DNA from: a virus
Taxonomy: Duplodnaviria > Heunggongvirae > Uroviricota > Caudoviricetes
Virus record (IMG/VR): IMGVR_UViG_2617270946_000003
Reading direction: 5' to 3' (one strand)
Length of the DNA stretch: 10,164 nucleotides
Positions 1-10,164 of the stretch are shown here, one piece after another; positions within the stretch are counted from its first letter, which is position 1, and the number at the start of each line of letters is the position of its first letter. Under the pieces are notes generated by a model, which did not search any database, was not told the DNA's origin, and saw only the letters and a program-made list of their open reading frames with translations. A program made the position numbers and the translations under genes.

Positions 1-76
1 CCTCACAGTTTATCCCGCCATATTCGTTGCTGGCTGCATTTCGTACTGCAAGAATCTCTTTTCCCTTATCCACCAT
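1..76 (-). CDS. Partial ORF immediately downstream of the tail fibre gene (3' end beyond window edge); function unknown, by position possibly a tail fibre assembly/chaperone gene
   Basis: On the minus strand the fibre stop TAG (87..85) is followed directly by AGGAGG (84..79) and ATG (76..74), with in-frame GTG at 73..71. It reads MVDKGKEILAVRNAASNEYGGINCE to the window edge. Not recognised as lambda Tfa. Confidence 0.35.
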   Translation of the reverse strand, partial: MVDKGKEILAVRNAASNEYGGINCE

Positions 77-84
77 GACCTCCT

Positions 85-1323
85 CTATGATATGCGCTGA
101 AATAATCCTGCCTGTCTGATACCCGGAGATGATGTCCATAGCATCGGACCACATGCACGCCACGTGCCCGGTAAACGGGTCTCCCCCACATTACCGGAAG
201 CAACCAGGGGAGTACCATCCGAAAGGCAACATGCAGACAGTGATGAGCCGGCAATGGCTGAGCCCGGTGCCATATCCCCCGAATAACTCGTCGCATAATA
301 TGCCGCAAGGACAAAAGAACCGACACCAAACAGTCCGCTGTCAGGACTTCCTGACGGTCCCTGAGGTCCTGCCGGACCTGCGGCTCCCGTATCTCCTTTT
401 GGCCCCTGAGGCCCTGCCTGACCTGCGGCTCCCGTATCCCCTTTTGGCCCCTGTGGTCCTGCCGGGCCTGCAGCTCCCGTATCTCCCTTTGGCCCCTGAG
501 GTCCTGCCGGACCTGCGGCTCCCGTATCTCCTTTTGGCCCCTGAGGTCCTGCCGGGCCTGCAGCTCCCGTATCTCCCTTTGGCCCCTGAGGTCCTGCCGG
601 ACCTGCGGCTCCCGTATCTCCTTTTGGCCCCTGAGGCCCTGCCTGACCTGCGGCTCCCGTATCCCCTTTTGGCCCCTGAGGCCCTGCCGGGCCTGCGGCT
701 CCCGTATCCCCTTTTGGCCCCTGAAGCCCTGCCGGGCCTGTATCCCCCTTGTCGCCCTTCGGTCCCAGTGGTCCGCCCGGATCGCCCTGCTCACCTTTCG
801 GACCTGTATCCCCCTTATCGCCCTTGTCACCTTTATCCCCTTTCGGCCCCGGTGGCCCTGCCGGGCCTGTATCGCCCTTGTCCCCCTTCTGTCCCTGTGG
901 ACCAGTTGCTCCGGTGTCGCCTTTCAGTCCCTGTGGCCCCACGGCAGTTTCGGCTTTCTCAGCAGCTTCTCGCGCCCTGCGCACAGCCTCATCCGCCGCC
1001 GCTTCCAGCTTCTTCAGTGCATCAGGATAATACGCTGCATCCGTTTCACGGAGCAGAAAGGCATTCAGGGTGCCCGGTTCGTCGTCGGCCATGACATCAA
1101 TCTCGCCGGCGCATGCCGGCTGACGACCTTCCACGCACAAGGTCACACGATAACGCCCCGGCTCAACCTGCATGCTGTAACTGCCCGTTTCGCCTGGCTG
1201 GTGCTCTGCCACCGTGGTGACTATCACCGTCTCACTCGTTCGCGTGGCTTTCAGCTCTATGGTGCAGTCCGGTACCGGTTTTCCTGTACCATCCTTCAGC
1301 ACACCTGAAATCTGTACTGACAT
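85..1323 (-). CDS. stf: Side tail fibre protein with collagen-like (Gly-X-Y) repeat shaft; N-terminal ~100 aa resemble the lambda Stf N-terminal domain
   Basis: 412-aa ORF with ATG at 1323..1321 preceded by a G-rich SD. N-terminus [17 protein letters not shown]...GTLNAFL resembles lambda Stf ([26 protein letters not shown]...GTLNDFL, from memory). Followed by a charged helical segment, then ~65 Gly-X-Y triplets and a ~95-aa non-repetitive C-terminus. Confidence 0.85.
359..718. repeat. Eight near-identical head-to-tail copies of a 45-bp unit (15 codons, [15 protein letters not shown]-type) inside the fibre gene
   Basis: Unit cctgaggtcctgccggacctgcggctcccgtatctccttttggcc begins at 359, 404, 449, 494, 539, 584, 629 and 674. 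Units at 359, 494 and 584 are identical, as are those at 404 and 629. More degenerate 9-bp collagen triplet repeats continue to ~942. Confidence 0.92.
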
Positions 1324-2096
1324 ATTCCCCCCACAAAAAAGCCCACCAGAACCGGCGGGCTGTCATAACTCTGTGTTACCTGGCTATGGTAGTTCACCGT
1401 CATCTGCTGACCACCAAACTGCTCCGCATCCACCTGCATCCCCACAATGGCCGTGTTCGGGTAGCACTGTTTCACATCGATGATTTCGGTGTATGACGAC
1501 CACAGCGTTCTGTTCTGCAGCTGGTCCGTGGTGCTGTCCGCCGTCTCCCTGACCATCCGGATGTTAAAGGGGCGGGGAGGCAGATTATCCAGAATCACCG
1601 AGGCCAGGAACTGTGAGGTGGTCTTGCCGTTAATGGTGACATCCTTTTCTGTCACCCAGTTACCGTTACGCTGTAACTGAATCAGCAGACGGACAGAGGA
1701 CGGATTACGGTCACCCTTTGACGTGGTCTCCACCAGTGACTGCACCCCGAAGGTCACCCGCAGGCGGTCAATGTTCGCTGACGTAATGGTGCGTGTTACC
1801 GGTTTTGCCCTGGTCACTTCGACACCCAGTACAGTTTCAGAGCCGGAGGACTCAAAGCCTTCCGGTGGTGTCTGCTCCTGCTCCCCGGCACGCCAGACCG
1901 CGGTCACACCGTGTATCACGGGATTACCGTCCGTGTCCGTCAGCGGGGTTTTGTTCACCAGAATACTCTGCAGGCTTTTCACCGGGCCTTCTATCGGTCC
2001 CTCACCAATCGCATCAATCACGCTCATCATCTGCGTGGATTTGAGATTGTCTTTCGCCTCACGAGGCGTGTGTGCCTTACCGCCACCTTTTCCCAT
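1296..2096 (-). pseudogene. J: Truncated central tail fibre / host specificity protein J: only the N-terminal ~236 codons, then ~30 unrelated codons to a stop
   Basis: MGKGGGKAHTPREAKDNLKSTQ...NIRMVRETADSTTDQLQNRTLWSSYTEIIDVKQCYPNTA matches the lambda J N-terminus (MGKGSSKGHTPREAKDNLKSTQ..., from memory) at roughly 80% identity. Similarity stops after ...QQMTVNYH (~1385). Lambda J is 1132 aa. SD GGGGAAGG precedes the ATG at 2096. Confidence 0.85.
1333..1361 (-). terminator. Hairpin plus U-tract just upstream of the fibre start codon (putative intrinsic terminator/attenuator)
   Basis: Minus-strand RNA AGCCCGCCGG-UU-CUGGUGGGCU followed by UUUUUUGU, ~10 nt before the fibre ATG. Stem includes two G-U pairs. 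Confidence 0.4.
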
Positions 2097-2194
2097 ACAG
2101 CCTTCCCCTGAATAAATTAACCGCCACTTGCCATTCCGTACAGAAGTCGGATATCCTTCGCCCGAAAAGCATGAAACACATTTCTGCCATGCTA

Positions 2195-2236
2195 AAGAGA
2201 AACCCCGGTATCAGCAGATACCGGGGTTTTCTTTCA
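2195..2236. terminator. GC-rich perfect inverted repeat with U-rich flank on both strands (possible bidirectional intrinsic terminator) in the I-J spacer
   Basis: aaccccggtat (2201..2211) / cagcag loop / ataccggggtt (2218..2228): 11-bp perfect stem. Followed by ttttctttc on the plus strand and by UUUCUCUUU on the minus strand. Confidence 0.45.
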
Positions 2237-2301
2237 TGCCCACCGATAATCCTGTTGGTTAAAACCGGTAATGGCATAAAAATTCTGAATATCTTCACAT
2301 T

Positions 2302-2329
2302 TTCACAAACTGACCGTGGCGCGTATAAT
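2302..2329 (+). promoter_or_regulatory. Sigma70-like promoter on the plus strand (antisense to the late operon)
   Basis: TTCACA (2302..2307), 16-bp spacer, perfect TATAAT (2324..2329), in an AT-rich context. Predicted start near 2336. Confidence 0.4.
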
Positions 2330-2335
2330 TTCTCT

Positions 2336-2441
2336 GCGTTAATTTTTTTGTCGTGATATAAGAATAATTCCTTACACTTAATCTTCGTAACTCTCCCGCA
2401 GTTCCTGTCCGCGATCACTGCGGGATTTTTTTATTCTTTTT
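2336..2441 (+). ncRNA. Candidate ~100-nt non-coding transcript between the predicted promoter and the plus-strand terminator
   Basis: No ATG-initiated ORF between 2336 and 2424 on the plus strand. Bounded by the promoter (2302..2329) and the terminator hairpin (2395..2424) plus T-tract. Purely a sequence-based prediction. Confidence 0.25.
2395..2441 (+). terminator. Plus-strand intrinsic terminator abutting the 3' end of gene I
   Basis: Stem cccgcag (2395..2401) / ctgcggg (2418..2424) followed by tttttttattcttttt (2426..2441). On the minus strand the A-run precedes the stem, so it is oriented for plus-strand termination only. Confidence 0.5.
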
Positions 2442-3105
2442 ACCCCTGCCGCCCGATAACCACGACCTTTCCGCCCCCGCCTTCATCACGGGTGCTGATG
2501 TCCTGGGATATACGGCGGGAGCCAACCAGCATTTCCCCGTAAGGCACCGGCATCGGGTTCCCCTGGGCAATCATGTTATCCAGCGAGGAAAAGTACGTGT
2601 TCTGTCTGCCGTTATCCGTTGCGCGGTAATCCGGTGTTTTTGCCTTCGGGGCCAGCATCTGGGCCACACCGCCCAGTATCATGCTGGCACCCAGTGAAAA
2701 CAGCATCGTGGTGGCAGAAAAACCACCGGCACTCAGGGCTGTACCCCATAACGCCATCGAGCCTCCGGCCGTGAAGAAAGAGCCCACGATGGCTGCCGCC
2801 CCCAACACAATCTGCAGTCCACCCTTTCCGGCCCCGGCCAGTCGCGGCACAATGTGGATGACCGTTCCCTCACCCAGCTGTTCGTGAAGGCGGGCGTACA
2901 CCACCTCCGGTGCCGTGTCTTCACCGGCAATACGTATCTGGTACCAGCCTTCGTTCATCTGAAGGCGAAAGCCCGGCATCTGCATCGACAGGGCGCGAAT
3001 GGCTTCCGCTGCCGTGTTCACATACAGGCTGAGGCGGCGGCCAAATCGTTGTAAATCCCCGTGGTTGCCCACGGTTGAGCCAGAGATAACAGCTTCCACC
3101 ATCAT
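2440..3105 (-). pseudogene. I: Tail assembly protein I homologue lacking its native N-terminus (first ~15 codons come from the FII/I deletion junction)
   Basis: From residue ~16 (GDLQRFGRR...) to the C-terminus (...GGKVVVIGRQG) it resembles lambda gpI (223 aa, from memory). The ATG at 3105 lies inside FII-derived sequence in another frame. Stop TAA at 2442..2440. Confidence 0.75.
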
Positions 3106-3391
3106 CCGGCGAAACCCGGTCTATCCAGAAGTTTTCCTCACCGATGGTCAGCGTGTCTCCACGCCGCAGTTGCCGCACATCATCAGTCCGGACAAACAGG
3201 GACGGGCTGGAGCCTTCAACGCGCACGCCCTGTCCGGCATAGCTGATATTTTCAGGGTCATCAAAAACACCACGTATTACTGCGCCGGACTGCTCACCGG
3301 ATGTCATGGTGGCTGACGTTCCCATGTACCCGCGTATCGTTTCATCGGCGCGGGCAATGGCAGCATCGAACAGGTTATCGAAATCAGCCAC
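2921..3391 (-). pseudogene. FII: Head-tail joining protein FII with altered 3' end: ~110 lambda-like codons, then read-through into gene I sequence out of frame (156-aa chimeric ORF)
   Basis: MADFDNLFDAAIARADETIRGYMGTSAT...EENFWIDRVSPDDGGSCYLWL matches lambda FII (117 aa) and diverges after ~residue 110. GTG start at 3391 with SD GGGAGG 4 nt upstream. The FI-FII gap is 11 nt, as in lambda. Confidence 0.8.
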
Positions 3392-3402
3392 AGCGCCTCC
3401 CG

Positions 3403-3798
3403 TTATTGCATTCTGGCCAGGCCGCGCTCTGTCATTTCAGCTGCCACACCGGCAGAGACACGGAACGCCGTTCCCGGCAGCACAAATGCCACAGTGTCAT
3501 CCCGCGTGGCGTGAAGTGCATCAGTATGCAGCGTCACCAGTGCCACGACCGTGACCAGAGCAGCCGTATCAATCACGGTATCCGGCTGCGCTGATACCAC
3601 CTCATTTTCATGTCCGGTCAGCGCATTTTCCGGGCTGACAGATGTGTCCTGACCGGCAGCGTCATCCGTGTCATCAAGCTCCTCTTCCAGCTCTGCCACA
3701 CGGAGCACCAGTTCTTCTTTCGTCCCCGTCAGGCTGACATCACGGTTCAGTTGCTCACCCAGCACCTGAAGACGGGCAATCAGTTCATCTTTCGTCAT
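3403..3798 (-). CDS. FI: DNA packaging / head assembly protein FI
   Basis: 131 aa from the ATG at 3798 (MTKDELIARL...AEMTERGLARMQ) matches lambda gpFI (132 aa). SD GGAGGAG upstream. The upstream extension in the ORF track (MALRGHF...) overlaps a hairpin and is not taken as the start. Confidence 0.9.
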   Translation of the reverse strand: MTKDELIARLQVLGEQLNRDVSLTGTKEELVLRVAELEEELDDTDDAAGQDTSVSPENALTGHENEVVSAQPDTVIDTAALVTVVALVTLHTDALHATRDDTVAFVLPGTAFRVSAGVAAEMTERGLARMQ

Positions 3799-3807
3799 GG
3801 ACTCCTC

Positions 3808-3837
3808 CACAGAGAGAAAATGGCCCCGAAGGGCCAT
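3808..3837 (-). terminator. Stable hairpin with UUCG tetraloop plus U-rich tract directly after the major capsid gene stop (attenuator or mRNA-stabilising element)
   Basis: Minus-strand RNA AUGGCCC-UUCG-GGGCCAU (3837..3820) followed by UUUUCUCUCU, in the 41-nt gap between E and FI. Confidence 0.4.
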
Positions 3838-3839
3838 GA

Positions 3840-4865
3840 TTACGCCAGTTGTACGGACACGAACGCATCAGGATCAGCCAGCAGCATCAGCGGTGCTGAC
3901 TGAATCATGGTGAACTCACGCGCCGGATCGCCGGTGGTCACCCAGTTTTTCGGGTAGCGGGCAGAGGCGTTAATACCTTCGCGCTGTGCGTCCGCATCCT
4001 GAATGCAGCCATAGGTGCGCAGACCGCGTGCCTGAGTGTTCCCCAGCACCATCGTGTTGTCCGGCAGGAAGTTCTTTTTGACGTCGTTTTCCACGTACTG
4101 TCCGGAATACACGACGATCGCCGTATCGCCATACATCCCCTTATAGGACACCGCTTCGCCCAGGTCTTTTACCGCTGTCTCCAGCTCGGAATTAGAGCCG
4201 CGACGGGTATCCAGCTTCTCCTTGACGGCTTTGAAGGAACGGAACAGCGCCCAGCCTTTCGGATCAAACACGATGATATTCACCACGCCGCTGGCGTTCA
4301 GCGCGTAGGCTTCGATATCGTCGGTCGGGTCATACGTGGACTTGTCACGCTTGCTCCACTCCGTGCCGCCGGACTGCGTGATGTTGTTCGCCGCACTGCG
4401 GCCCATATCCACCTCAACCGGATCGAAGGCTTCACCGGTCATGGTGTATTTGCCCTTGAGCACGGCAGAAACGGCCTGCATCTCTTCGACCTGAGCAATG
4501 GCCAGCTCTTCGTCACGCATGTTCTGCATGATGATGCGACGGCGGCGGTAAGTCGGGTCCGCCAGATTCTGCGGATCTTCATCCGGCAGGCGACGCAGGG
4601 TCATCTGCGGATTCACTTCATGCTTGGGTTTGACATATCCCGGCGTAAATTCAGAGGTGGAGCCGCCACGGGAACGGATAACCTCACCGGAAACAATCGG
4701 CGAAACGTACAGCGCCATGTTTACCAGTCCCGGAATTTGTGAGAGATAGACTTTCTCCGTAGTGAAGGGATAGCTCTCACGGAAAAAGAGACGCAGAAAC
4801 AGCGGATCAAACTTAAATTTCTGCTCATTTGCCGCCAGCAGCTGGGCGGTTGTGTACATCGACAT
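3840..4865 (-). CDS. E: Major capsid protein E
   Basis: 341 aa, MSMYTTAQLLAANEQKFKFDPLFLRLFF...FVSVQLA, essentially lambda gpE, with identical length and identical gaps to D (55 nt) and FI (41 nt). Confidence 0.97.
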   Translation of the reverse strand: MSMYTTAQLLAANEQKFKFDPLFLRLFFRESYPFTTEKVYLSQIPGLVNMALYVSPIVSGEVIRSRGGSTSEFTPGYVKPKHEVNPQMTLRRLPDEDPQNLADPTYRRRRIIMQNMRDEELAIAQVEEMQAVSAVLKGKYTMTGEAFDPVEVDMGRSAANNITQSGGTEWSKRDKSTYDPTDDIEAYALNASGVVNIIVFDPKGWALFRSFKAVKEKLDTRRGSNSELETAVKDLGEAVSYKGMYGDTAIVVYSGQYVENDVKKNFLPDNTMVLGNTQARGLRTYGCIQDADAQREGINASARYPKNWVTTGDPAREFTMIQSAPLMLLADPDAFVSVQLA

Positions 4866-4920: not shown

Positions 4921-5253
4921 TTAAACGATGCTGATTGCCGTTCCGGCAAACGCGGTCCGTTTTTTCGTCTCGTCGCTGGCAGCCTCCGGCCAGAGCACAT
5001 CCTCATAACGGAACGTGCCGGACTTGTAGAACGTCAGCGTGGTGCTGGTCTGGTCAGCAGCAACCGCAAGAATGCCAACGGCAGCACCGTCGGTGGTGCC
5101 ATCCCACGCAACCAGCTTACGGGTGGAGGTGTCCAGCATCAGCGGGGTCATTGCAGGCGCTTTCGCACTCAATCCGCCGGGCGCGGTTGCGGTATGAGCC
5201 GGGTCACTGTTGCCCAGCGGCTGGTAATGGGTAAAGGTTTCTTTGCTCGTCAT
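4921..5253 (-). CDS. D: Head decoration protein D
   Basis: 110 aa from the ATG at 5253 ([12 protein letters not shown]...TAISIV), near-identical to lambda gpD. SD AAGGG 6 nt upstream. The ORF track start at 5259 (MFM...) is 2 codons too long. Confidence 0.95.
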
Positions 5254-5262
5254 AAACATCCC

Positions 5263-5868
5263 TTACACTGGTGTGTTCAGCAAATCGTTAACGGCATCAG
5301 ATGCCAGGTTACCTGCAGCCAGCGGTGCCGGTGCCCCCTGCATCAGACGATCCAGCGCAGTATCACTGCGCGCCTGTGCACTCTGTGGTGCTGCGGCCAG
5401 AATGCGGCGGGCCGTTTCCACGGTCATACCGGGGGGTTCTGCCAGCACGCGGGCCTGTTCTTCGCGTCCGTGAGCCTCCTCACAGTTGAGGATCCCCATA
5501 ATGCGGCTGTTTTCTGCCGCAACCGCAGCGTTGATCTGCGCGTTCACGTCCGGCTGCGCCGCGCTGGCGTTTTCGCCCTCCATCGCTGGCACCACGCCAG
5601 TAACGTCAGCCTGCGAAGCAGTGGCTGAAACAGTTGTTGATTGAGTCTCTTTGGTCATTCGCCCTCCTGAGAGACGGGATTTACGTGCATCCAGTGCATC
5701 ACGCATGATGGTGATCGCATCGGTACTGTTAACAAGTTCATCAGCCAGTCCGGCATCAATGGCCTCCTGACCGCTGTACACTGCAGCCTCGGTATCCAGC
5801 ACAGCCTGCACGGACAGGCCGGTATATGCCGACACCTTCTGTGCAAACATCCGGCGGGTTGCATCCAT
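5263..5868 (-). CDS. Nu3: Scaffolding protein Nu3, nested in frame within the 3' third of C
   Basis: In-frame ATG at 5868 (MDATRRMFAQ...) gives 201 aa sharing the C stop, the same length and arrangement as lambda Nu3. No strong SD is visible, so confidence is lower. Confidence 0.6.
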   Translation of the reverse strand: MDATRRMFAQKVSAYTGLSVQAVLDTEAAVYSGQEAIDAGLADELVNSTDAITIMRDALDARKSRLSGGRMTKETQSTTVSATASQADVTGVVPAMEGENASAAQPDVNAQINAAVAAENSRIMGILNCEEAHGREEQARVLAEPPGMTVETARRILAAAPQSAQARSDTALDRLMQGAPAPLAAGNLASDAVNDLLNTPV

Positions 5869-6582
5869 CCGGGACTGCAGTGTTTCCCGGACATCATCCG
5901 GTAGATGGCTGTAGGGGTTGCCATCCACCTTATGGCTGCCGCTGTAAATCAGCGTGATTTCCACGCCCTGTTTCTCCAGCGCAGCACCGTAATTACTGTG
6001 AGCCATCATGACGCCGATGGAGCCTGTCCGGGCGGTCTGCGTGACCAGACGCCGGGAGGCGGCACTGGCAAGCAGCTGACCTGCGCTGCAGTTCATGTCA
6101 TTGGCCAGCGCCCATACCGGCTTTATGTCACGCACACGGGCGATGATGTCAGCGCAGTCAAATGCCCCTGCCACCATTCCGCCGGGCGTGTCCATATCCA
6201 GCAGAATGCCGTCCACCATCGGGTCGCTGGCAGCCTGTTGCAGACGGGCGATAATGCCGTTGTAACCAGTCATCCCCGAATACGGCTGCAGCGCCCGCGT
6301 CCGGCAGACCAGCGTGCCGGAAACCGGCAGCACGGCGATGCCGTTCATGACCTGATAACTGCGGGCCTGTCGTGGTCCGTCATCATTAACGGATAACGCC
6401 AGCTTCGCGGGTGCCTCTCCGGCAGTCAGGCTGTCACCGGACACCGCATCCGTCAGGCGGCTGATCCCAAGCTGGCCTGCAAGCGCACAAAAGAAAACCC
6501 GCGCATAGGCGGGTTCAAGCATAAGCGGCTCATTAAAGGCCATGCTGGCAATATGCGGGAGATTACGCAGCTCTGCTGTCAC
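5263..6582 (-). CDS. C: Head maturation protease / scaffold C
   Basis: 439 aa from GTG at 6582 (VTAELRNLPHIASMAFNEPLMLEPAYARVFF...), near-identical to lambda gpC. SD GGAGGA 5 nt upstream. Overlaps the end of B by 20 nt, as in lambda. The ORF track start at 6717 is an upstream artefact. Confidence 0.92.
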   Translation of the reverse strand: MTAELRNLPHIASMAFNEPLMLEPAYARVFFCALAGQLGISRLTDAVSGDSLTAGEAPAKLALSVNDDGPRQARSYQVMNGIAVLPVSGTLVCRTRALQPYSGMTGYNGIIARLQQAASDPMVDGILLDMDTPGGMVAGAFDCADIIARVRDIKPVWALANDMNCSAGQLLASAASRRLVTQTARTGSIGVMMAHSNYGAALEKQGVEITLIYSGSHKVDGNPYSHLPDDVRETLQSRMDATRRMFAQKVSAYTGLSVQAVLDTEAAVYSGQEAIDAGLADELVNSTDAITIMRDALDARKSRLSGGRMTKETQSTTVSATASQADVTGVVPAMEGENASAAQPDVNAQINAAVAAENSRIMGILNCEEAHGREEQARVLAEPPGMTVETARRILAAAPQSAQARSDTALDRLMQGAPAPLAAGNLASDAVNDLLNTPV

Positions 6583-7735
6583 TCTTCTCCTCCTCTGTTG
6601 ATTGTCGCAGTCCGGATTCAAATGCCGCAGCCGCCCAGGCGGGCGGTTTAAGACCGGCTGCACGGCGCTCCATCGTTTCACGGACCTGCTGGGCAAAAAT
6701 TTCCTGATAGTCGTCACCGCGTTTTGCGCACTCTTTCTCGTAGGTACTCAGTCCGGCTTCTATCAGCATCACCGCTTCCTGTACTTCTTTCAGACCATCG
6801 ATGGCCATACGACCGGAGCCTATCCAGTCACAGTTCCCCCAGGCGCTGCGGGCTTCCTGAAAGCTGAAACGCGCTTTTGAAGGTAACGTCACCACGCGGC
6901 GAACGATGGCCTCTTCCAGCCAGCACAGAAACATCTGGCTCGCCTGACGGGATGCGACGAATTTTCGCCGCCCCATAAAGTACGCCCACGACTCGTTCGC
7001 ACTGGCCCGTGCCGTGGAATAGCTCATCTGGGCGTAATTCCGGGAAAGCTGCTCATACGAGACACCCAGCCCGGCAGCGATATACCGCAACAGTGACTGC
7101 TCAAACACGGAGTAGCCGTTATCCGTATCCTGAGCCGTCTGCAGGTTCAGTGAGTCACCCGGCATCAGGTGCGGCACTTTTGCGCCTCCCAGCCGAACCG
7201 GTGCTGCGGCGTAATACGCGGCAATTTCACCAATCCAGCCGGTCAGCTTGTCCCGCTGCTCCTGACTGTTCGCGCCCAGAATAAAATCCATCGCTGACTG
7301 CGTATCCAGCTCACTCTCAATGGTGGCGGCATACATCGCCTTCACAATGGCGCTCTGCAGCTGCGTGTTCTGCAGCGTGTCGAGCATCTTCATCTGCTCC
7401 ATCACGCTGTAAAACACATTTGCACCGCGGGTCTGCCCGTCCTCCACGGGTTCAAAAACGTGAATGAACGAGGCGCGCCCGCCGGGTAACTCACGGGGTA
7501 TCCATGTCCATTTCTGCGGCATCCAGCCAGGATAGCCGTCCTCGCTGACGTAATATCCCAGCGCCGCACCGCTGTCATTAATCTGCACACCGGCACGGCA
7601 GTTCCGGCTGTCGCCGGTATTGTTCGGGTTGCTGATGCGCTTCGGGCTGACCATCCGGAACTGTGTCCGGAAAAGCCACGACGGACTGGTATCCCAGGTG
7701 GCCTGAACGAACAGTTCACCGTTAAAGGCGTGCAT
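6563..7735 (-). pseudogene. B: Portal protein B lacking roughly its N-terminal 143 codons
   Basis: C-terminal ~390 aa (MHAFNGELFVQATWDTS...EEEKSDSRAA) match lambda gpB (533 aa). The A-stop to C-start distance is 1193 nt here versus 1781 nt in lambda, so 588 bp are missing. The first in-frame ATG is 7735; the track start at 7759 is TTG. Confidence 0.85.
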
Positions 7736-7778
7736 GCAGTGCCGCACGGGCAGCGGCAAGTTCTTCCTGTCGCGTCAT
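7722..7778 (-). pseudogene. W: Remnant of head-tail joining gene W: 15 conserved codons, then 3 novel codons and a stop
   Basis: ATG at 7778 overlaps the A stop (ATGA). Translation [18 protein letters not shown]-stop versus lambda W [21 protein letters not shown]... (68 aa). Confidence 0.7.
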
Positions 7779-9700
7779 TCATCCTCTCCGGATAAGGCAC
7801 GGGCGTAATCTGCCAGTGTTTTCTTGTTGGTTGCTGCACCATCCTCTTCCTTCAGGCTCGCCAGCAGTGCACTGAGATCCAGCTGCCAGCGGGAAATACT
7901 GATGCGCAGCGCCGCCAGCGCATAAACGAAGCAGTCGAGCGCCTCATTGCGTCGTTTTTTGCTGTCCCACAGTATTTTTTTCCTGCCATCCACCCATTTT
8001 TCGACCTGCTCTTCAGCCGTCAGCTGCTGCGCTTCGGTCAGATCAAAAATATCCGGGTTATTCGGGAAGTGAACGGCACCGGGAAGCGGTTCATCCCCTT
8101 CCGGCGTCAGTGTGAAGCGGTTATAAATCTGCTCTTTCGCGGTATCCGTACCGATTTCGGTAAGGTAAACCCCGTTTTTGTTTCGCTTACGTGGCATGCT
8201 GGCCACCGGCTTTCCGTAGACGGATGCCCCTTTAATGGGGATCACCCGGAACAGCCCATGTTTTTTCGAGCGTTCATACACGATGGTCGGGTCAATCCCG
8301 CCAGTATCCCAGCAGATACGGGATACCGACATTTCTGCACCATTCCGGCGGGTATAGGTTTTATTGATGGCCTCATCCACACGCAGCAGCGTCTGTTCAT
8401 CGTCGTGGCGGCCCATAATAATCTGCCGATCAATCAGCCAGCTTTCCTCACCCGGCCCCCATCCCCATACGCGCATTTCGTAGCGATCCAGCTGGGAGTC
8501 GATACCGGCGGTCAGGTAAGCCACACGGTCAGGAACGGGCGCTGAATAATGCTCTTTCCGCTCTGCCATCACTTCAGCATCCGGACGTTCGCCAATTTTC
8601 GCCTCCCACGTCTCACCGAGCGTGGTGTTTACGAAGGTTTTACGTTTTCCCGTATCCCCTTTCGTTTTCATCCAGTCTTTGACAATCTGCACCCAGGTGG
8701 TGAACGGGCTGTACGCTGTCCAGATGTGAAAGGTCACACTGTCAGGTGGCTCAATCTCTTCACCGGATGACGAAAACCAGAGAATGCCATCACGGGTCCA
8801 GATCCCGGTCTTTTCGCAGATATAACGGGCATCAGTAAAGTCCAGCTCCTGCTGGCAGATGACGCAGGCATTATGCTCGCAGAGATAAAACACGCTGGAG
8901 GGGTCATCCGGCGTCCATTTGAGGCCAAACGGCGTCTCTTTGTCGCCAAATTTAAGATACTGCTCCTCCCCGCAGTGCGGGCAGGCAACATGAAAACGCA
9001 TAAAATGCGGGGATTCACTGGCTGCACGCTCAATCTGGCAGGTGCCTCTCACTTTGGGCGTGGAGCCACGGATGGACTTTGGCCAGACCGAGCCTTCAAT
9101 ACGCTTATCGCCCAGGAACGTCGGAGAGCCTTCCTGTTCAATATCCTCATCAAAGGCAGCAAGTTCATCATAACCCGCCACATCCACTGACTTTTCACGG
9201 TAGTTTTTTGCCGCTTTACCGCCCAGGCACCAGAAGCCACGACCATTGGAAAAACGCTTCATGGTGAGCGTGTTATCCCGGTGCTTTTTGCCATACCACG
9301 GGGCCAGCGCCAGCAGCGACGGAATATCACGAATAGTCGGTTCAACGTGGGTTTTCATAAAGTTCTCGGCATCACCATCCGTCGGCAACCAGATAAGGGT
9401 GTTGCGCTGCTTATGCTCTATGAAGTAGGCATAAACACCCAGCAGCATTTTGGAATAACCAACACGGGCAGACTTCACCACATTCACCTCACGGATGTAG
9501 TCGCTGCCCATCGCATTCATGATGGCCCGCTGAAAGGGCAGTGTTTCCCAGCGCCCTTCCTGGTATGCGGATTCTTTCGGGAGATAGTAATTGGCATCCG
9601 CCCATTCAACGGCGGTCTGTGGCTCCGGCCTGAACAGTGAGCGAAGCCCGGCGCGGACAAAATGCCGCAGCCTGTTAACCTGACTGTTCGATATATTCAC
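7775..9700 (-). CDS. A: Terminase large subunit A
   Basis: 641 aa (MNISNSQVNRLRHFVRAGLRSLFRPEPQTAVEWADANYYLP...LADYARALSGEDE), near-identical to lambda gpA and the same length. The start codon at 9700 is GTG in this sequence. Overlaps Nu1 by 26 nt, as in lambda. Confidence 0.97.
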   Translation of the reverse strand: MNISNSQVNRLRHFVRAGLRSLFRPEPQTAVEWADANYYLPKESAYQEGRWETLPFQRAIMNAMGSDYIREVNVVKSARVGYSKMLLGVYAYFIEHKQRNTLIWLPTDGDAENFMKTHVEPTIRDIPSLLALAPWYGKKHRDNTLTMKRFSNGRGFWCLGGKAAKNYREKSVDVAGYDELAAFDEDIEQEGSPTFLGDKRIEGSVWPKSIRGSTPKVRGTCQIERAASESPHFMRFHVACPHCGEEQYLKFGDKETPFGLKWTPDDPSSVFYLCEHNACVICQQELDFTDARYICEKTGIWTRDGILWFSSSGEEIEPPDSVTFHIWTAYSPFTTWVQIVKDWMKTKGDTGKRKTFVNTTLGETWEAKIGERPDAEVMAERKEHYSAPVPDRVAYLTAGIDSQLDRYEMRVWGWGPGEESWLIDRQIIMGRHDDEQTLLRVDEAINKTYTRRNGAEMSVSRICWDTGGIDPTIVYERSKKHGLFRVIPIKGASVYGKPVASMPRKRNKNGVYLTEIGTDTAKEQIYNRFTLTPEGDEPLPGAVHFPNNPDIFDLTEAQQLTAEEQVEKWVDGRKKILWDSKKRRNEALDCFVYALAALRISISRWQLDLSALLASLKEEDGAATNKKTLADYARALSGEDE

Positions 9701-10164
9701 TCAGCAACCCCGGTATCAGTTCATCCAGCGCGGCTGCTTTGTTCATGGCTTTGATGATATCCCGTTTCAGGAAATCAACATGTCGGTTTTCCAGTTCCGG
9801 AAAACGCCGCTGCACCGACAGGGGGATCCCGTCGAGAATACTGGCAATTTCACCTGCGATCCGCGACAACACGAAAGTACAGAATGCGGTTTCCACCACT
9901 TCAGCGGAGTCTCTGGCATTCTTCAGTTCCTGTGCGTCGGCCTGCGCACGCGTAAGTCGATGGCGTTCGTACTCAATAGTCCCTGGCTGGAGATCTGTCT
10001 CGCTGGCCTGCCGCAGTTCTTCAACTTCCCGGCGCAGCTTTTCGTTCTCAATTTCAGCATCCCTTTCGGCATACCATTTTATGACGGCGGCAGAGTCATA
10101 AAGCACCTCATTACCCTTGCCACCGCCTCGCAGAACGGGCATTCCCTGTTCCTGCCAGTTCTGA
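9675..10164 (-). CDS. Nu1: Terminase small subunit Nu1 (5' end outside the window; ~26 N-terminal codons missing from view)
   Basis: ...QNWQEQGMPVLRGGGKGNEVLYDSAAVIKWYAERDAEIENEKLRREVEELRQASE...SEYIEQSG matches lambda Nu1 residues ~19-181. The frame stays open to the window edge. Confidence 0.93.
   Translation of the reverse strand, partial: QNWQEQGMPVLRGGGKGNEVLYDSAAVIKWYAERDAEIENEKLRREVEELRQASETDLQPGTIEYERHRLTRAQADAQELKNARDSAEVVETAFCTFVLSRIAGEIASILDGIPLSVQRRFPELENRHVDFLKRDIIKAMNKAAALDELIPGLLSEYIEQSG

Follow-up and report, generated by a model that had tools for sequence, protein, structure and literature searches.

A probable FII-I deletion at a short microhomology in a multiply deleted, defective lambdoid prophage of Escherichia coli

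In the stretch of DNA analysed here, the lambda-type head gene FII runs into sequence which, in another frame, encodes the tail assembly protein I. The locus raises the question of whether the tail genes that lambda has between them were really lost or only misassembled away, and what kind of element is left. The stretch, hereafter the window, has 10,164 nucleotides (IMG/VR record IMGVR_UViG_2617270946_000003) and by exact-protein look-up corresponds to contig JNRI01000098.1 (assembly GCA_000704605.1) over its full length. Taken together, the comparisons make it very probable that the window represents a defective lambdoid prophage with multiple deletions, and that the FII-I fusion is a genuine deletion of about 6.97 kb at a 3-bp microhomology.

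The minus strand of the window shows a lambda-type late operon, as seen from the open reading frame map and the alignment to lambda (NC_001416), with the order Nu1, A, W stub, short B, C, D, E, FI, FII, I, short J, stf and the start of tfa; all the genes and remnants described below are on this strand. The head genes are colinear with those of a lambda-type morphogenesis operon (97-99.8% identity), save for a 589-bp gap between W and B, and the window matches the Nu1-A-(W)-B-C-D-E-FI-FII order of lambda itself at 97-98.7% nucleotide identity. Nu1, encoding the terminase small subunit (9675..10164), is 98.7% identical to lambda 247-736 and shows PF07471 on the called gene; the contig end removes its first 19 codons, approximately. 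Five head genes downstream or adjacent are intact: A, encoding the terminase large subunit (7775..9700; 641 aa; PF05876/PF20454), which is 99.8% identical to that of L009, a prophage of E. coli S1-CAM-01-A; the protease-scaffold gene C/Nu3 (5263..6582; 439 aa; PF01343), colinear with L009 and with L012, a prophage of E. coli 23CRST047; D, encoding the head decoration protein (4921..5253; PF02924); E, encoding the major capsid protein (3840..4865; 341 aa; PF03864); and FI, encoding the DNA-packaging chaperone (3403..3798; 131 aa; PF14000, E 3.6e-49). Downstream of FII the order is also that of lambda, with lower identities: 72% for I, 78% for the J N-terminus and 89% for the lom-stf spacer. The tail-end genes of the window are a different mosaic variant from those of lambda.

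At the other end of the window, the side tail fibre gene stf (85..1323) shows a phage_tail_N domain and collagen-like G-X-Y repeats, which at 359-740 form 8.5 copies of a 45-bp unit with a 92% match. Among the sibling contigs, that is, those sharing this remnant, the stf product has 397, 412 or 442 aa, which reflects repeat-number variation or short-read assembly uncertainty. Contig ends tend to fall in these repeats. The tail fibre assembly gene tfa (DUF4376) is cut by the contig end, and only its start (1..139) is contained in the window; it was assigned from its translation and from the gene at 7939-8610 of the sibling contig L003, which shows PF14301.

L009 and L012 are the relatives against which the losses were defined. 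L009 is colinear with all three segments of the window at 97-99.8% identity, and each gap against it is clean, with an overlap of 2-4 bp; L012 is colinear across the W-B and FII-I gaps. Both retain W, full-length B, FII, Z-K, full J and lom, whereas the window lost all of these in whole or in part. Both also adjoin the chromosomal genes ykgJ-potB-potA-pepT-roxA-phoQ, a flank which is found on the sibling contig L003 as well, and both share the I-J spacing of the window. This spacing is due to an AT-rich, unannotated spacer of 343 bp (2097..2439, no strand assigned), across which the window is colinear with L009 and which lies outside the FII-I deletion. The position of the spacer is conserved among the related E. 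coli prophages L009, L010 and L012. An insertion had been considered for this non-lambda segment and was ruled out, given the equal spacing in these three prophages and an Rfam search of 2097-2439 that gave no match.

The fusion reading frame, FII' (2921..3391; 156 aa), is composed of FII codons 1-110 and 46 out-of-frame codons across the 3' end of K and the 5' end of I. Over its first 110 residues it shows 100% identity to the FII protein of L012, an intact prophage, in agreement with an earlier note on this DNA that had followed the frame as lambda-like to about codon 110. Residues 1-111 align to lambda gpFII (PDB 1K0H; E 4.5e-68), and residues 8-105 correspond to positions 4-96 of the 99 in the Pfam profile PF05354. 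The product is not a full-length gpFII: the C-terminal residues 111-117 are absent, and in their place there are 46 unrelated residues which match nothing and are read in a frame that is neither that of K nor that of I. The FII nucleotides up to the junction (486 bp) are identical to both L009 and L012.

Base-level alignment places the FII-K/I junction at 3061..3063, inside the interval of 3060..3068 where it had been predicted, and shows a 3-bp microhomology, CAC, that occurs at both parental sites. The left parent reads GGGCAACCAC and continues after the break with CCGCTG; the right parent reads CTGCCTTCAC and continues with GGGGATT; the window sequence across the junction is GGGCAACCACGGGGATT. 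FII is retained to codon 110 plus 1 nt, its 3' 23 nt being deleted, and the right side begins 43 nt before the K stop, which corresponds to approximately codon 20 of lambda I (lambda nt 14831). The earlier note had gpI beginning in another frame from about residue 16: the change of frame holds, and the entry point moves to lambda I codon 20 or so. As called, I (2440..3021) has 193 aa and a GTG start, is 98.4% identical to I of L012, and matches PF06805 (Lambda_tail_I; E 1.9e-14) over profile positions 9-83 of 83. The called gene is intact, and the loss is confined to the N-terminal extension of the lambda-style gene, about 19-20 codons; in the lambda-style long form, the first 8 positions of PF06805 are lost. 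The I frame stays open upstream, over the junction, to an ATG at 3105 within the FII sequence, so that the region 2921-3105 singled out in the earlier note is the overlap of two open reading frames. The resulting 221-aa version of I is not a called gene in any record looked up. Both flanks of the junction match the relatives at E 1e-72 or better; the FII and I matches are therefore not due to chance, and both assignments are upheld by Pfam, by tblastn and by the alignments to lambda and L012.

The DNA missing at this junction amounts to 6,965 bp against L012, 6,969 bp against L009 and 6,905 bp against lambda, in which the absent segment is 7926-14830; the loss had been put at about 6.9 kb. It takes Z, U, V, G, T, H, M, L, and K minus its last 43 nt. 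When W, Z, U, V, G, T, H, M, L, K and lom of L012 were used as tblastn queries, none was found in the window (the 15 retained codons of W are too short to register), which confirms that Z through K are not present elsewhere on the contig. Of the complete lambda-type tail set, Z-U-V-G-T-H-M-L-K-I-J, nothing is left in the window but I and the initial 237 codons of J. These losses and the alignments support the view that a lambda-type tail could not be built.

Two further deletions, overlooked at first, were found in the window. The W-B junction (7733..7736) shows a 4-bp microhomology, CATG, and 589 bp are missing (lambda 2679-3267). The W remnant (7722..7778), defined from its translation and the junction alignment, contains 15 W codons, three foreign codons and a TAA stop (MTRQEELAAARAALHARL, then the stop). 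The portal gene, B' (6563..7735), encodes 390 aa from the internal Met 144; by tblastn it corresponds to B 144-533 at 99.7%, lacks residues 1-143, and covers only positions 110-354 of 354 of the PF05136 profile. Gene callers label this 390-aa product "portal protein". The J-lom junction (1385..1386) shows a 2-bp microhomology, TA, and the rest of J and lom, about 3,435 bp, are missing (about 16202-19586 of lambda). The J' remnant (1296..2096) contains 237 J codons and 29 out-of-frame codons, with PF24801 (FNIII-A domain) as its only domain; by tblastn it corresponds to J 7-250 of 1157, and it continues into the lom-stf spacer.

The FII-I junction was not spanned in 5,426 complete E. coli genomes, nor in plasmids, phage records, GTDB species representatives or JGI metagenome contigs; a 120-bp query across the W-B junction gave no contiguous spanning match among those listed from the 5,426 complete E. 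coli genomes, and the J-lom junction was spanned by none of the complete E. coli genomes searched. On these searches, all three deletions look private to the carrier lineage. The only two listed W-B matches of at least 80% (E. coli O104:H21 94-3024 / CFSAN002236) consist of two pieces 257 bp apart; a gap of 257 bp rather than 589 points to what would be a different and smaller W-B rearrangement in that strain.

Among the isolates related to the source of the window, the FII-I junction is recurrent. The exact 156-aa FII' protein forms a singleton cluster on 7 NCBI contigs and a 32-mer across the junction is present in four IMG/VR records, so that the identical junction is found in at least seven NCBI assemblies and four IMG/VR records. 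It lies inside contigs of 33.7 kb and 86 kb as well as in short ones, and in three upstream/downstream contexts. The source isolates, commensal strains of E. coli, were obtained from children in rural Tanzania; their genomes were assembled by MaSuRCA 2.3.2 from HiSeq reads of 100 bp (PMC6222053). The carrier isolates come from at least three children and differ by 0-3 SNPs per approximately 9 kb outside the collagen repeats, as a near-clonal lineage. The reading of the siblings as diverged lineages, in which the junction was inherited over a long time, was ruled out by these 0-3 SNPs, since the apparent divergence of 0.1-0.3% is due to repeat misalignment. Because the carriers are one clone assembled by one pipeline, the recurrence is weaker evidence than it appears.

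These data bear on the possibility that the junction is an assembly artefact which joined contig ends of different prophages, the real FII-Z...K-I interval being intact. Where a genome contains several lambdoid prophages, assembly from 100-bp short reads is error-prone; a systematic error could reappear within one clone and one pipeline, and the window is a short contig with repeats at both ends. Nevertheless, the same junction is present in at least seven independent read sets, including the interiors of the 33.7-kb and 86-kb contigs, and it does not coincide with the mosaic boundary usual between head and tail genes, which is found 17 nt farther upstream, at the point of divergence of lambda-type FII sequences. 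The assembler is named as MaSuRCA, whose contigs rest on super-reads supported by k-mers and overlaps and not on 3-bp overlaps; an overlap of 3 bp should not be able to drive such a join. An artefact is thus very improbable, and the concern about misassembly is largely answered by the recurrence in at least seven independent read sets and in differing contexts.

With the deletion taken as genuine, the element shows the essential-gene losses of a defective prophage: W, the B N-terminus, the FII C-terminus, Z-K, the J C-terminus and lom are deleted. FII lacks its last 7 residues and J its C-terminal 920 residues. Since a tail, a tail tip, a head-tail adaptor and a complete portal are all lacking, the element is, judging from the lost genes, probably non-viable, that is, a dead prophage; beyond the tail, the W-B and J-lom deletions would leave it unable to form functional heads or a tail tip either.

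The retention of head genes in a tail-less element could also be read as a functional capsid-only parasite, similar to the capsid-forming phage-inducible chromosomal islands (cf-PICIs); it would package its own DNA in heads of its own making and rely on a co-resident lambdoid phage for tails. The cf-PICIs are elements with terminase and capsid genes and no tail genes, and in the window Nu1, A, C, D, E and FI are intact and free of frameshifts while the tail genes are gone. In contrast to a cf-PICI, the window is no dedicated satellite: it copies a complete prophage almost identically, carries fresh deletions, and has a broken portal and broken head-tail adaptors. Residues 1-143 of the portal (profile positions 1-109) are absent, only 15 codons of W are left, and FII, which docks the tail, ends without its C-terminus; with portal, W and FII broken, the element has no capsid and packaging module that would be complete and self-sufficient. 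Ordinary complete prophages share 97-99.8% identity with this DNA, and the intact reading frames therefore reflect recent deletions; the junctions are private to one clone, and head genes are also deleted in sibling isolates. A satellite of this kind is hardly conceivable here.

Sibling contigs show both the chromosomal site of the element and further losses. In L003 the shared remnant, from the 3' end of window E to tfa, runs into ykgJ-potB-potA-pepT-roxA-phoQ, and this chromosomal flank is 99.9% identical to E. coli 23CRST047; by way of this contig, the element is seen to be integrated in the chromosome, as a defective prophage is. L003 and a second sibling contig, L004, share window 1-4013, after which the last 62 codons of E are joined to a nanS-like esterase gene at its 5' end. 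The resulting nanS'::E' joint is located at 3590-4066 of L003 and at approximately 790-1265 of L004, and a further 12-13 kb or so, containing the lysis genes and Nu1 through most of E, is gone from both. The B' portal protein is found on 5 contigs, against 7 for FII', and is absent from the L003 and L004 assemblies; some siblings thus lack the head genes too, which argues against selection for keeping them. A chimeric E gene at the boundary shared with the siblings (q6152) was rejected, since the mismatch density against L012 and L009 changes gradually, with no step.

The right context of the remnant also differs between both contigs: L003 shows potB-phoQ at 8686-15157, and L004 shows at 5974-12356 an integrase gene and yfdC-like, mlaA and fadL genes, which is the argW-region neighbourhood. 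The two contexts, in near-identical strains, suggest a prophage-mediated chromosomal rearrangement between two prophages.

A third related record, L014 (IMG/VR UViG 2585427751_000010), shows the E breakpoint joined to the 5' end of terminase A and the J breakpoint joined straight to tfa, with stf skipped. These joints are at 305-307 and 2931-2933 of L014, with 3-bp overlaps, and their counterparts in the window are at approximately 4013 and 1385. The 307-bp terminase A fragment of L014 is 100% identical to that of the window, lineage SNPs included, and the window and L014 are therefore derivatives of one element.

The three deletions of the window and the further losses in sibling isolates indicate that the element is decaying stepwise. 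At FII-I, the deletion probably arose by illegitimate, homology-independent recombination between the CAC at FII codon 110 and the CAC 43 nt before the end of K, with replication slippage or microhomology-mediated end joining as the putative mechanism. A single event of this kind would have removed the block for the tail shaft, the tape measure and baseplate assembly, that is, Z, U, V, G, T, H, M, L and most of K. The W-B (CATG) and J-lom (TA) deletions are of the same type, and the greater losses of the siblings would be later steps of the same decay. One observation runs against this best explanation: L014 reuses the block-side breakpoints with other partners, and random slippage predicts otherwise.

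The reuse of breakpoints is what brings in another mechanism, in which the deletions are footprints of IS excision, as in a process of the IEE/IS629 type: an IS located at the breakpoints or close to them would have been excised, and resection on one side followed by end joining at microhomologies would have taken flanking DNA with it to a variable extent. [quoted passage not shown] In agreement with such a process, one end is fixed and the other variable, with overlaps of 2-4 bp: the E breakpoint (CC/TAT/GG; window position 4013, approximately) joins intact E, the nanS-like esterase gene or the terminase A 5' end, and the J breakpoint (immediately after CCATA; approximately window position 1385) joins the lom-stf spacer or tfa. 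The identity of the L014 terminase fragment to that of the window fits this too, as it makes them derivatives of one element. Against it, no IS sequence or IS remnant was found at any junction in the contigs examined, and the FII-I junction has one configuration only. All the joints carry a microhomology of 2-4 bp, and the shared endpoints at E and J both depend on the single IMG/VR record L014. IS excision is accordingly an unlikely source of the deletions, and it concerns the mechanism only, the defective-prophage outcome being unchanged.

The reuse of endpoints in L014 may have any of three origins: IS excision with one-sided resection and microhomology joining; secondary deletions through microhomology at an earlier joint; or an artefact of that single record. 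As to the second of these, it is possible to write the nanS'::E' joint and the A'::E' joint with an overlap of 4 bp, GTTA. Whichever applies, the pattern leaves the verdict on FII-I unchanged, as this junction shows a single configuration everywhere. It is a little less likely again than IS excision in general that the decay proceeds by one specific process, in which scarless microhomology deletions run from E at about codon 280 and from J codon 237, with FII-I and W-B as older footprints. If true, the isolates would capture prophage decay under way, by IS excision with IEE-type end joining rather than by random slippage.

Whatever its mechanism, the FII-I loss is ordinary prophage decay, and the remnant is of a well-known kind. 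Rac, Qin and DLP12 of E. coli K-12 and the defective Sp/CP-933 prophages of O157:H7 are chromosomal lambdoid remnants with internal deletions of morphogenesis genes, and cryptic lambdoid prophages keep scattered intact genes, such as terminase/nohA-like genes and the stf/tfa fibre genes. Compared with these cryptic prophages, the decay described here is very recent: the remaining genes are about 98-100% identical to those of functional relatives, and several successive deletion states are found among isolates 0-3 SNPs apart. Tail-module deletions are evidently common among E. coli prophages, as in the unrelated lambdoid prophage of E. coli PV0838, a complete genome, where an internal deletion fuses remnants of T and of the tape-measure gene H (L011 15867-16457).

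For annotation, the deposits named 156-aa "tail attachment domain protein", 390-aa "portal" and 266-aa "J domain protein" are truncation or fusion products and not new proteins, and the contig is best annotated as a dead prophage remnant, with little significance beyond that. Its value for the biology of these prophages is modest: it offers a clean and datable case of stepwise prophage erosion, with three microhomology deletions and more within a single human cohort, and the isolates could be used to study the deletion mechanism if they were resequenced with long reads.
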